This document shows, in pieces, positions 1 through 11,449 of a DNA stretch of 21,185 nucleotides. A program made the translations under genes and the position numbers. Positions within the stretch are counted from its first letter, which is position 1; every line of letters begins with the position of its first letter. Below the pieces are notes generated by a model. It was given only the letters and a program-made list of their open reading frames with translations. It did no database searches and was not told the origin of the DNA. The stretch is from NCBI GenBank assembly GCA_030614005.1, contig JAUWKS010000055.1, positions 1 to 21,185 on the forward strand, in the 5' to 3' direction. The stretch is from Candidatus Heimdallarchaeota archaeon (lineage in GTDB: Archaea; Asgardarchaeota; Heimdallarchaeia; JABLTI01).

Positions 1-156
1 ACCCACAAGACCTATAGGTGGTCGCTGATCTTTGGCAGTAGACTCAACCTCAAATCTCGTCTGCCATTGACCATCTGCAAGCAATTTCAAAATTGCTATT
101 TTTGCTTGATCATCTGCGACTAAATTATAGATGCGATTAGCAATGATTGAATTCAT
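1..156 (-). CDS. 5' part of a hypothetical protein, possibly winged-helix (runs off the window edge)
   Basis: Not in the ORF track. Hand translation from ATG 156: MNSIIANRIYNLVADDQAKIAILKLLADGQWQTRFEVESTAKDQRPPIGLVG, open to position 1. The ATG overlaps the sepF stop (ATGA, 156-153), typical of translational coupling. KIAILKLLADG..T..EV resembles the start of wHTH domains (inference). Confidence 0.6.
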   Translation of the reverse strand, partial: MNSIIANRIYNLVADDQAKIAILKLLADGQWQTRFEVESTAKDQRPPIGLVG

Positions 157-578
157 ATGATTCCTTCCTCTGTAGGAGGTTCAGGTGGAGTCATTTCTTC
201 CGAATTTTCATTTTCCTCAAGTAGTCTTTTGATTAGGGATAATTTCATATTTGGAGGAACGACAACCACAAAATCCTTACCTAAAGCAACAATATCTCCG
301 CCATAGGTTCTTGTAAACGATTTCAATTGTTGAATAGAACGTTTAAGACGGATCATATCCAATCTTGCAAGGTCTCGTACTCCGAGAATAACAACATTTC
401 CCCTAGAAATTGTATCACAAATCATATCTACATCGTGTAAACCTCGGAGCGTTAAAGTTAACACTTCTTTTTGCTCGAGATTTTGAAGATGGTCTCTTGT
501 TTTCCTTCTAAAAAGGAAGCTGGATGTGCCTATAATTGTACCTACACCAATAATTCCTAAAGCTGTTAATATAACCAA
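153..578 (-). CDS. sepF: Archaeal SepF-family cell division protein with N-terminal hydrophobic segment
   Basis: Core LRGLHDVDMICDTISRGNVVILGVRDL...LKRSIQQLK...GGDIVALGKDFVVVVPP matches the SepF pattern (GNIV, GGDI, TP/PP end). TTG start with GGAGG 8 nt upstream (587-591). Confidence 0.75.
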   Translation of the reverse strand: MVILTALGIIGVGTIIGTSSFLFRRKTRDHLQNLEQKEVLTLTLRGLHDVDMICDTISRGNVVILGVRDLARLDMIRLKRSIQQLKSFTRTYGGDIVALGKDFVVVVPPNMKLSLIKRLLEENENSEEMTPPEPPTEEGII

Positions 579-692
579 TTGTTAATCCTCCGTAGATTAC
601 CAATGTATCATATTCAACTCCCTACATTAAAAGACAAAGAATATGCGCATATTACAGAGAAAGTAGCTAGAGAATAAGAGAACCAAAAGTGA

Positions 693-1001
693 TTAGAATC
701 GCACCAAACTCATCGGTAACCACTCTTTATTTCCATCGTTATATTCAATTTTAATGTTTTCACCTTTGACTTTGATTACAGAACCGGGATAGTAGTTTTC
801 TCCACCCTGCCATCGCCCTTCAATAGGAAGCCCTTTTTCTATTCCTATTGGTCTAATATATTCAATAGTTAATATCTCAACTGTTCCCTCATCATAAACC
901 ACATGGATATTCAATTCATCTATTTCTTGAATAGTACAAGCATACCAATAATCATCTTGACGCCAATTTGCTAATACACGGTCACCTTCGGAAACAGTCA
1001 T
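693..1001 (-). CDS. Stand-alone tandem Tudor/Agenet-like domain protein
   Basis: Two ~50-aa repeats: GDRVLANW..DDYWY..TI.EI....HVVYDEG..E.L....IRP and G..IEGRW.GGENYYPG.V..V....IKIEYNDG.KE.L....VR. AGGTGA SD at 1006-1011. Confidence 0.8.
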   Translation of the reverse strand: MTVSEGDRVLANWRQDDYWYACTIQEIDELNIHVVYDEGTVEILTIEYIRPIGIEKGLPIEGRWQGGENYYPGSVIKVKGENIKIEYNDGNKEWLPMSLVRF

Positions 1002-1035
1002 TGTATCACCTATGCTCTTTCTTTTAATTAAACGA

Positions 1036-1050
1036 TTTTAAAAGAGTTTC
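1036..1050 (-). promoter_or_regulatory. Putative BRE/TATA promoter for the Tudor gene
   Basis: Minus strand GAAACTC-TTTTAAAA about 35 nt before the ATG. The same GAAANNN-TTTT(A/T)AA pattern recurs upstream of pgsA, mutL and mutS. Confidence 0.45.
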
Positions 1051-1056
1051 AGCTAA

Positions 1057-1227
1057 TTAAATCTCAGAAATCGCTGTTACAGGGCAGCATTCAATGCAAT
1101 GCCCACAATCTGTGCAACCTTCGCTAATCTCTAATTTATTATTCTCAATATAATAGAGACCCTCGGGACAAATTGTTGCACAACCTAAACAGAATCCACA
1201 AACTTTATGATCGATTTCAACAGGCAT
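1057..1227 (-). CDS. 2[4Fe-4S] dicluster ferredoxin (56 aa)
   Basis: Two CxxCxxCxxxCP motifs (CGFCLGCATICP; CTDCGHCIECCP). Start moved to ATG 1227 (MPVEID), giving a typical ferredoxin length. Confidence 0.9.
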   Translation of the reverse strand: MPVEIDHKVCGFCLGCATICPEGLYYIENNKLEISEGCTDCGHCIECCPVTAISEI

Positions 1228-1311
1228 TTTTCTGAACACCACTAAATAGAAAAACCATCTAAGATAATAAATTATTCGTATTAAATGTTTAAACCACTTG
1301 AGGGACATGTA

Positions 1312-8731: not shown

Positions 8732-9286
8732 TTATTGTAACGCTGAACCACAAGTCACACAGAATTTATCCTTAGCGGTTATCTTAGAACCGCAATATGG
8801 GCAGTATCCTTGATCTTGCATATTCTGCATAATTGGAGTAATCTCTATACCTTCAGGTTCACTAATCTTCTTGCTTGCATTTATTGGTGTGGGAGTTGTT
8901 GTTCCAATTGGAGGTTGTCCTTTTACTTCAAACACCACTACTTCACCGCTTTCAGGATCAAATGAAGCTTTTAGTTTTCCTTCTGCTCGTAAATCAACAA
9001 TCATCTCTTTTAGATCACGCTTTTTCATACGGAGTTCTTCACTTAGCTGATTCAGTTGTACTCTCTGGTAGGATTTTAACGCACCTAATACTTTCTCACG
9101 ATTATAGCGATAACTGAGAATATTAGAGATACCGGCAATTAATAGTATTCCACCTGGAATAAACATCCAGTAACTTCCAGGAGTATTTGGAAATCTTACT
9201 GCAATTATGCCCCAGATAATAAAACCGATGCCAAATGATAAGGTCCAGAGATTTCCGCGACCGAATGAACGTTCTATGTAACCCAT
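8732..9286 (-). CDS. Membrane protein with 2 TM helices, PCI-like winged helix and C-terminal zinc ribbon
   Basis: TM1 LWTLSFGIGFIIWGIIAV, TM2 WMFIPGGILLIAGISNIL; YQRVQLNQLSEELRM...MIVDLRAEGKLKASFDPESGEV (PCI pattern); CPYC...FCVTCG. Start ATG 9286 or GTG 9298. Confidence 0.78.
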   Translation of the reverse strand: MGYIERSFGRGNLWTLSFGIGFIIWGIIAVRFPNTPGSYWMFIPGGILLIAGISNILSYRYNREKVLGALKSYQRVQLNQLSEELRMKKRDLKEMIVDLRAEGKLKASFDPESGEVVVFEVKGQPPIGTTTPTPINASKKISEPEGIEITPIMQNMQDQGYCPYCGSKITAKDKFCVTCGSALQ

Positions 9287-9464
9287 TTTGTAAATCACAT
9301 CAAATAGTTGTAATAATTTCTTTCTAATACTAAATTGCTCATTAAGCTAAAAAAACCTTTACTATCAGAACTTGAAGAAAAGTTGTTTCAATAGTTAGTT
9401 TTATAAGCTAATAAGTAACACAAAAAAAACTGCTTTTAAACGAGAGTATGCTCTGGTTATTATC

Positions 9465-10189: not shown

Positions 10190-11449
10190 TTAATCCAAAA
10201 CTGTCTTACACATACCAACGTATCCTTGTGCTTCAGTCATTGATTTCTGAATTAATGTAATTAAATTTTTATCCTTAACTTTTTCTGCTATTTTAATTGC
10301 TTTTTCAAAAGCGTTTTCACCTTGAGTAAACAAATCTAATGCTTCTTGATATTTTTCTGAGTCTAAATTGAAAATTCCTTGAGACTGATAAAAGTGTCCT
10401 AAGTAATATTCTTGCTGTGCTTCCCATCGGTTCAAAGTTGCTTTATCGTCTTCCTTATTTGGGAATGCTTGAATTGCTTGTTTCAAAAAATCTGCAGCTA
10501 ATTCAAATTGTCTTGTAGCTTTCTTTGCATCATTGAGATTTTTAAGAAATTCATTTGCATTTGCTTCATACATACTTGATTTCAGCATATAAGAGTAGGA
10601 TTCGAACAATTTAGCATTTTTTCCATCTATTGATAGTTTACTTGCTCGTCTATAAAATTTTGAAGCAAGATTGCATTTCTCACTACCTTCGGTAAACTCT
10701 CCATCATTGGAGTGTTTAAAAGCTTCTTTCCACAAAACCGAAGCTTTTTGCTCTACAATCATTCGTACAATGGTTTTCAAAATTTCATTTTGTTCTTTAA
10801 CCCAAACAGAATATGATGGATTGTAATAAGCAGCAATTACAAATGATTTGTAAGCTCCTAAATTCCTTTTTTTTGCTAGGTGTAAATTCTTATTATCAAA
10901 GGCTTGTTCTCCTTCTATTTTTAAGGATAAGCCTTTAGAGAAATTTTCCCGAGCTTTGGCATTATATTTCAGCAGTGGGTTATCATTCTGTTCAACTATT
11001 TTTCCTTCTAAAGTATATGAATTTAGTGCTTCCAATAATGCTTCAATTTGTTTTTCAGGTGGTGTTCCTTTTTTTAATGCAAGACATTCAGAATTTCTAC
11101 CTTTAGAGAAAAGGTCCATTCGTTCAGCTTCTTGTTGATATTCCAATGAGAAACCAGTACTCATTCTTTGGAATCGAGTAAGCATCTTTCCACCTTCCAC
11201 ATATTCAAGAGAAGCACCAGTATAATCTCCCTGGCGGTATTTCTTTTCTCCCTCAATTATTGAAAATACACCCTTATAGAGGTAGAGAGAAATTTTGGCT
11301 ACCTGATCGCCATCGTCATCTTTTTGTTTTAAAGATTTAATCTTCTCATCAATAGAAATGGAAACTTCTTGTAAATTTGTTCTAAATTCATCAAAGAAGA
11401 ACAATTTTTTCTCGGATAGTGAAGCAGCTGCACTCAAACTTCTATTCAC
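10190..11449 (-). CDS. All-helical TPR-like repeat protein
   Basis: Repeating helix pairs with A/G/Y patterning (e.g. GIFNLDSEKYQEALDLFTQGENAFEKAI). An AGGTGA SD overlaps the GTG, so the real start may be TTG 11437. Confidence 0.72.
   Translation of the reverse strand: MNRSLSAAASLSEKKLFFFDEFRTNLQEVSISIDEKIKSLKQKDDDGDQVAKISLYLYKGVFSIIEGEKKYRQGDYTGASLEYVEGGKMLTRFQRMSTGFSLEYQQEAERMDLFSKGRNSECLALKKGTPPEKQIEALLEALNSYTLEGKIVEQNDNPLLKYNAKARENFSKGLSLKIEGEQAFDNKNLHLAKKRNLGAYKSFVIAAYYNPSYSVWVKEQNEILKTIVRMIVEQKASVLWKEAFKHSNDGEFTEGSEKCNLASKFYRRASKLSIDGKNAKLFESYSYMLKSSMYEANANEFLKNLNDAKKATRQFELAADFLKQAIQAFPNKEDDKATLNRWEAQQEYYLGHFYQSQGIFNLDSEKYQEALDLFTQGENAFEKAIKIAEKVKDKNLITLIQKSMTEAQGYVGMCKTVLD

Follow-up and report, generated by a model that had tools for sequence, protein, structure and literature searches.

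Domains that recognize methyl marks on proteins are usually viewed as eukaryotic inventions, a view set out in one preprint (bioRxiv 10.1101/2021.11.30.470311). The locus described here raises the question of whether a very small protein encoded in a Heimdallarchaeota MAG could be such a reader and, if so, by what route its gene came to be there. The window, by which is meant the whole stretch of DNA that was analyzed (21,185 nucleotides), had been examined once before, and the original prediction described within it a 102-aa protein made of two Tudor-like repeats. That protein is an exact match to the translation of a minus-strand ORF, and all of the motifs that had been quoted are found in it (NW13-RQDDY-W19Y20, V35-YDEG-39, RW64-QGGEN-Y70Y71 and E86-YNDG-90). 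The gene and its two halves are laid out as follows.

693..1001, minus strand: coding sequence, stop codon included, of the 102-aa stand-alone tandem Tudor protein, from the ORF and its translation
846..1001, minus strand: Tudor repeat 1 (aa 1-52), from residue-level alignment to the RDM15 Tudor (7DE9)
696..845, minus strand: Tudor repeat 2 (aa 53-102), from the internal repeat and family alignments

The internal repeat is evident from the protein itself: an ungapped alignment of its two halves spans 48 columns and scores 54, compared with 20.5 +/- 3.9 in 500 shuffles (z 8.6). Comparison with orthologs in two sister genomes shows mainly synonymous differences (dN/dS 0.09-0.13), so that the gene is real, functional, and under purifying selection. 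It is single-copy in the host genome (3.6 Mb, 90%-complete), and a member of its 90%-identity cluster bears the NCBI name [quoted passage not shown] The protein is acidic, with a pI of 4.53 and a net charge of -8.4, and repeat 1 alone has a pI of 4.05. It starts with MTVSEGDRV directly before strand 1 and has no hydrophobic N-terminus; a signal peptide was looked for in the protein and none was found, and the product is presumably small, soluble, and cytoplasmic.

Membership in the Tudor "royal family" (Pfam clan CL0049) is indicated by clan profiles that score above their curated cut-offs. Tudor_3 (28.5 bits, cut-off 25.8) and Agenet (28.8 bits, cut-off 27) each match two stretches of the protein, Tudor_5 and the BAHCC1-like Tudor score lower, and DUF4537, a tandem-type model, covers residues 6-100. 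When compared with the sequences of the PDB, the family profile matches SETDB1, RDM15, MTF2, 53BP1, and KDM4A at E 1e-6 to 1e-4. An AlphaFold2 model computed from a 14-sequence alignment (pLDDT 92.7, pTM 0.76) predicts two five-stranded SH3-like β-barrels, with strands at residues 8-13, 18-28, 31-36, 41-44, and 49-51 in barrel 1 and at 59-63, 70-79, 82-87, and 92-96 in barrel 2. In this model the two barrels take the mutual orientation seen in 53BP1. A Foldseek comparison, which had been proposed as a check, returns the methyl-lysine tandem Tudors 53BP1 and Crb2 as its best matches; the top of the list against the PDB contains only Tudor-clan readers (BAHCC1 TTD, 53BP1, Crb2, FMRP, SETDB1, and plant Agenet proteins), with TM up to 0.86 for 53BP1. 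In VIA-align, the tandem Tudor of 53BP1 (residues 1484-1588) superposes on residues 2-102 of the model with a Z of 14.7 and an rmsd of 1.7 Å over 99 residues, and that of Crb2 follows with Z 10.8. A KOW/SH3 fold without a cage, the outcome named beforehand as speaking against the original prediction, can be rejected; among the Foldseek matches, KOW comes no higher than rank 46 and has an rmsd of 11.8.

The family profile matches the Tudor domain of Arabidopsis RDM15/PDS5C (PDB 7DE9) at E 1.4e-6. In RDM15, the cage around the H3K4me1 methyl group consists of W616, Y623, and Y641; both protons of the ammonium are held by D643 and D645, and E647 is the residue to which H3R2 binds (PMC8184781). 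The HMMER alignment to 7DE9 equates W13 of repeat 1 with W616, Y20 with Y623, Y36 with Y641, E38 with D643, T40 with D645, and E42 with E647. The cage-like W/Y residues noted in the original prediction thus sit on experimentally defined cage positions, W13/Y20/Y36/E38/E42 corresponding to W616/Y623/Y641/D643/E647. Six residues of repeat 2 occupy the places equivalent to the repeat 1 set. The codons concerned are as follows.

W13 963-965, Y20 942-944, Y36 894-896, E38 888-890, T40 882-884, E42 876-878, minus strand: cage-like residues of repeat 1
W64 810-812, Y71 789-791, Y87 741-743, D89 735-737, N91 729-731, E93 723-725, minus strand: cage-like residues of repeat 2

The aromatic W-Y-Y triad of an RDM15-type Tudor is therefore present in both repeats, as W13/Y20/Y36 and likewise W64/Y71/Y87, whereas the two-Asp feature contributed in RDM15 by D643 and D645 is replaced by E38 and T40 in repeat 1 and by D89 and N91 in repeat 2, with K at position 91 in three related sequences (G001, G010, and L039). 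Because this clamp is incomplete, the protein is not classed as an RDM15-type Kme1-specific reader. Among 168 other tandem units, the family consensus is YDDGDxE, and the cage positions are the most conserved of the family: D occupies position 38 in 82% of the units and position 89 in 85%, and E is found at position 93 in 87%. This consensus is exactly the W616/Y623/Y641/D643/D645/E647 pattern of RDM15, and many bacterial members consequently carry the complete RDM15 signature. What the archaeal protein shares with RDM15/PDS5C and with plant MSH6 as H3K4me1 readers is the signature W-x6-Y ... Y-D-[DE]-G-x-x-E; the difference is that RDM15 has a single Tudor within a large chromatin protein.

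Comparison of orthologs suggests an asymmetry between the two pockets. Across the archaeal clade, five sequences of which were aligned, no substitutions occur at W13, Y20, E42, W64, or Y71, position 36 is occupied by Y or F, and position 38 by D or E; conservation of W13, Y20, E42, 36, and 38 extends to a wider table and to the L037 ortholog. Position 40 varies as T/M/D, position 89 as D/S/T/M, and position 91 as N/K/E/D, and since 89 and 91 vary in this way, the pocket of repeat 2 is the less conserved. Repeat 1 thus looks like the functional pocket, as in 53BP1. From the alignments, the auxiliary cage position would be T40 (in repeat 2, N91, or K in orthologs) and not the Asp or Tyr of characterized readers, and the sequence does not by itself reveal a methyl-state specificity.

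The 53BP1/Crb2 tandem Tudor is a reader of H4K20me2 and p53K382me2, and it is the known system that the predicted structure resembles in having two five-stranded barrels with the same mutual packing. W1495 and Y1502 of 53BP1 are presumably the counterparts of W13 and Y20, on the assumption that the aligned ranges are ungapped at the N-terminus, and F1519 and D1521 we take to be those of Y36 and E38. On this mapping, made through the aligned ranges and the 53BP1 residue numbering, four of the five positions in the W/Y/F/D/Y cage of 53BP1 Tudor 1 would be kept (W13, Y20, Y36, and E38), and the fourth aromatic wall, presumably Y1523, is T40 in the Heimdall protein. Differences are also substantial. 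Identity is only about 20%, and the Heimdall protein is archaeal and stand-alone, without flanking domains and without the C-terminal helix that lies beyond 1588. Furthermore, only Tudor 1 of 53BP1 has a cage, whereas cage-like residues occur in both repeats of the archaeal protein. The methyl-arginine readers SMN, SPF30, and TDRD3 represent another point of comparison, as they include the best single-sequence PDB matches to repeat 1 (SPF30, E 0.036), their cage residues align with W13 and Y20, and the single Tudors TDRD3, PHF20, SMN, and PHF1 superpose with VIA-align at Z 9.5-10.7 and rmsd 0.8-1.4 Å. Their cages are built from four aromatics, however, one of which lies in a G-Y-G turn, whereas the turn of the Heimdall protein is D-E-G-T.

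The sequence family to which the protein belongs is large and varied in architecture. A near-length word-indexed protein search found only four clusters, whereas an exhaustive representative search found 1014 homologs at E<=1e-3 and 317 at E<=1e-10. Matches down to E 1e-44 are to multi-unit proteins, including a caspase fusion (P0073) and forms with signal peptides. Four kinds of homolog can be distinguished. The largest are giant proteins of 10-30 repeats, the named ones coming from the stramenopiles Laminaria, Sphacelaria, Pythium, and Synura; such stramenopile giants (P0006, P0007, P0009, and P0053) are the top-scoring sequences of the exhaustive search. Proteins of 200-600 aa with 2-4 stretches form another kind, some of them with a caspase domain or an N-terminal zinc ribbon, and a further kind comprises stand-alone proteins of about 100-110 aa. 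The last is a pair of 193-aa triple-Tudor proteins from two "Promethearchaeota" (Loki-type) MAGs, encoded at the following positions.

L031:2812-3390: triple-Tudor gene of a Loki-type MAG
L032:2789-3367: triple-Tudor gene of a second Loki-type MAG

These triple Tudors have no signal peptide and carry the full YDDGDxE in two of their three repeats; at pI 8.8, they are unlike the acidic Heimdall protein.

The named members of the family are bacterial or stramenopile, and the earlier suggestion that similar domains occur in some bacteria is borne out by named examples in the Armatimonadota, Planctomycetota, Pseudomonadota, and Spirochaetota. In species-representative genomes, the Armatimonadota have stand-alone 106-aa family proteins without a signal peptide, the Planctomycetota have multi-unit forms, one fused to a kinase and some with C-terminal transmembrane tails, and members from the Pseudomonadota and Spirochaetota have a signal peptide or a lipoprotein-like N-terminus. 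Named bacterial loci are 34-61% identical to stand-alone family members, and in the ESM-Atlas the closest clusters consist of bacterial proteins, 92-108 aa in length, that are annotated as "tudor/Agenet domain-containing." Kaur, Iyer, Subramanian & Aravind (2018) described bacterial chromo-like domains that are mostly secreted, occur in 2-6 tandem copies, are often fused to caspases, and conserve the cage residues (PMC5906684). The Heimdall protein resembles that family in its homology to the YDDGDxE tandem units, its tandem repeats, and its conserved aromatic cage; the proteins described were bacterial and secreted, whereas it is archaeal and lacks a signal peptide. Secretion is a typical, not a defining, feature of the family. 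As the Heimdall protein belongs to a family described in 2018 and its near-identical relative already carries a Tudor label at NCBI, it is not a new kind of protein.

How a member of this family came to reside in a Heimdall archaeon is indicated by its distribution, the subject of a survey that had been recommended from the start. Only five of 399 Asgard genomes contain a match to the family profile, three of them in the host genus and the other two being the Loki-type genomes, which represent a distant family. Within the host genus, 3 of 11 genomes have the gene, and divergent orthologs with 75% and 54% identity are found on metagenome contigs. Tudor loci share the order XPD - PriS - PriL - SnoaL-like - ferredoxin - Tudor - SepF - wHTH. 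In a tree of SepF and wHTH, the five lineages with a Tudor gene group together as a single clade (UFboot 96, SH-aLRT 97), which is nested within the genus under midpoint rooting. One nested clade together with shared synteny implies one gain by insertion followed by vertical descent, and the gene was inserted once, between the ferredoxin gene and the sepF promoter, in the ancestor of one sub-clade of the genus. The Tudor protein has since diverged faster than its neighbors, with 54% identity compared with 69-74% for the same genome pair. With five of 399 Asgard genomes matching and a single gain inside one genus, the horizontal origin that had been raised as a possibility stands; the gene is of horizontal origin.

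The immediate surroundings of the Tudor gene are listed here.

1057..1308, minus strand: upstream neighbor, a small 4Fe-4S ferredoxin-like gene (Pfam Fer4_10)
1002..1056, minus strand: 55-nt spacer after the ferredoxin-like gene, from the sequence
1022-1032 and 1036-1043, minus strand: AT-rich TATA-like boxes, 21-42 nt upstream of the Tudor ATG, from the sequence
1005-1011, minus strand: SD-like AGGTGAT, 4-10 nt upstream of the Tudor ATG
625..666, minus strand: conserved element of about 42 nt, 5' of sepF and 3' of the Tudor stop codon, from alignment
153..578, minus strand: downstream neighbor, sepF (Pfam SepF)

The Shine-Dalgarno sequence that had been predicted for the Tudor gene is recognizable as the SD-like AGGTGAT, and its GGTGAT core is kept, along with the AT-rich stretch, in G001 and G010, the two genomes compared with the host to make three. 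The TATA-like boxes are a plausible putative promoter of the gene. On the upstream side, the ferredoxin-like gene is present at 10 of the 10 loci compared in the genus lineage, and in genus members without the Tudor gene it directly adjoins the upstream region of sepF; joint acquisition of the ferredoxin and Tudor genes is ruled out by its presence at all ten of these loci. Its ORF encodes 83 aa here compared with 61 aa in G010, and the extra N-terminal 22 residues, which are hydrophobic and aromatic, may reflect a wrong choice of start and not a real extension. An 84-aa ORF at 1285-1539 on the plus strand overlaps this long N-terminal reading. Its similarity (80% identity) is confined to the first 56 residues of a SnoaL-like protein of 149-151 aa that is intact in G001, L037, and L039, and the ORF is probably a truncated or frameshifted SnoaL-like pseudogene in the host genome.

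On the downstream side, synteny of sepF with the Tudor gene is seen in G001, G010, L037, and L039. The element at 625-666, with a consensus of about TTTCCTTGTATTAT...ATATTCTTTGCCTTTTAATG, occurs in 8 of the 8 aligned genus genomes, with the Tudor gene present or absent, and is conserved far beyond synonymous sites; it is likely to be a promoter, operator, or 5' leader of sepF. Since sepF keeps its own upstream signals, adjacency of the two genes need not mean an operon, and a Tudor-sepF operon is not supported, as the element is conserved both with and without the Tudor gene. No functional hints were seen in the neighborhoods of the Tudor gene, here or in bacteria, and the neighbors of the Armatimonadota and Loki homologs are inconsistent (GH76, GAPDH, HpaB, SUKH, and helicase).

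The source of the inserted gene is less sharply defined by phylogeny. Maximum likelihood analysis of 109 tandem units recovers a clade of the archaeal sequences (100/99) as well as one of stramenopile type (97/98), and it places the archaeal clade among sequences of the Armatimonadota, Planctomycetota, and Pseudomonadota with weak support (37/71). An AU test does not reject a sister group of archaeal and stramenopile sequences (delta lnL 2.7, p 0.45). A quick tree had given the Armatimonadota as nearest relatives (SH-aLRT 84), a placement dropped after a constrained search gave a better tree and the careful tree gave 37/71. A bacterial donor is favored because stand-alone two-Tudor forms of about 100 aa occur in bacteria and because of the maximum likelihood topology.

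A SET-domain writer of methyl marks was not found in the 90%-complete host genome. A candidate writer of another type is encoded elsewhere in that genome.

G000 contig 33, 6953-7498 (L042:1381-1926), plus strand: aKMT-like ORF of 181 aa, matching PDB 5FA8/5JWJ at E 1.4e-28

This ORF is a clear homolog of Sulfolobus aKMT, a broad-specificity protein-lysine methyltransferase, and its product has a hydrophobic N-terminal segment. Besides the host (G000), 9 of the 10 remaining members of the genus carry the gene, often in two copies, and it is present in 1 of 20 genomes searched outside the genus. Being genus-wide, this candidate writer pre-existed the gain of the Tudor gene and does not co-vary with it. 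With respect to ligands, the two histone-fold genes of the host have only short N-terminal extensions, and histone tails are ruled against as obvious ligands, both histones being without long tails. A search of the literature for experimental work on Tudor proteins from bacteria or archaea, binding included, found none. The acidity of the protein (pI 4.53, charge -8.4) favors a basic ligand over nucleic acid.

The explanation that best accommodates these observations is of a 53BP1-like tandem Tudor protein, gained once, in which repeat 1 would form a half-open aromatic pocket (W13, Y20, and Y36) backed by the carboxylates E38, E42, and D16. The group docked there would be a methyl-ammonium cation, with mono- or di-methyl-lysine in a basic segment of a protein as the most plausible form, and repeat 2 would contribute either a weaker additional pocket or a surface for support. 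In this way the protein would serve as an adaptor or shield that depends on methylation, and the marks that it reads may be written by the aKMT-like lysine methyltransferase of the genus. What the analysis shows directly is the gene, its fold class, the correspondence of residues, the distribution, and the single gain; we infer the ligand, its connection to a writer, and the donor, and the explanation as a whole is given somewhat less than an even chance of being right; that the protein is a methyl-mark reader is put at about the same level or slightly below. The stronger proposition, that this is the first genuine archaeal cytoplasmic methyl-lysine reader, horizontally acquired and reading lower-state marks made by a membrane-anchored aKMT-like enzyme, is doubtful.

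Several other readings of the same protein must be weighed against this one. It may be an adaptor indifferent to methylation, whose acidic barrels bind unmodified Lys/Arg-rich segments such as basic tails or ribosomal and chromatin proteins, with the aromatics making generic cation-pi contacts. The strong acidity of the protein fits this proposal, as does variation within the archaeal clade at the auxiliary positions that set methyl-state specificity (T40; N/K/E at 91), and the 53BP1 Tudor is reported to bind RG-rich peptides and DNA. An adaptor of this type is nevertheless judged unlikely, although deserving of serious consideration, as the aromatic triad and carboxylate are invariant in the clade and in the family, a pattern typical of methyl-ammonium pockets. 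Aromatic boxes with a carboxylate also recognize quaternary and methylated amines, so that a buffer or sensor binding a cationic metabolite (a polyamine, a choline/betaine-type quaternary amine, or a free methylated amino acid) can be envisaged for a protein that stands alone, without a partner domain and without conserved neighbors. Characterized members of the Tudor clan all bind macromolecular ligands, however, and the many-repeat relatives, some fused to caspases, suggest polymeric targets, making a metabolite binder quite improbable.

Binding to nucleic acid as an SH3-like or OB-like protein has precedent in Tudor and chromo domains, some of which bind DNA or RNA, but a protein with a net charge of -8.4 and a pI of 4.53, falling to 4.05 for repeat 1, makes such a role hardly credible. 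Just as remote is the prospect that the protein is a vertically inherited, eukaryote-like Asgard chromatin reader of the type ancestral to the 53BP1/Crb2 tandem Tudor. In its favor, the barrels are predicted to be arranged in three dimensions as in 53BP1, the Heimdall host possesses histones, and grouping with the eukaryotic (stramenopile) multi-Tudor proteins as sisters is not rejected statistically. Presence in 5 of 399 Asgard genomes and a single nested clade in the genus, however, fit one late insertion; the two histones are without long tails, identity to 53BP1 is about 20%, and two-Tudor proteins of 92-108 aa are common in bacteria.

The Heimdall lineage does carry a well-formed tandem Tudor. 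As a late and lineage-restricted acquisition, the gene is not to be counted as an Asgard "eukaryotic signature protein," and relevance to eukaryote origins is not supported. If an archaeal methyl-lysine reader is indeed encoded here, it would represent prokaryotic writer-reader signaling by lysine methylation outside of chromatin, and the 53BP1-type tandem Tudor architecture would predate eukaryotes or have arisen outside of them. The protein provides a very small soluble model for methyl-lysine reading by prokaryotic Tudor domains, with cytoplasmic bacterial relatives of about 100 aa, and a candidate aKMT-like writer in the same genome adds to its value as a test case.

Two other genes of the window exhibit domain compositions worth recording. 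Besides a PCI domain (24.2 bits, cut-off 22), the 188-aa protein at 8732-9298 on the minus strand contains a membrane repeat resembling DUF308 and, at its C-terminus, a zinc ribbon, an unusual mix for a eukaryote-type PCI module. Also on the minus strand, at 10190-11449, a 419-aa protein shows marginal similarity to the nucleotidyltransferase DUF2204 and, C-terminally, to the MIT domain.
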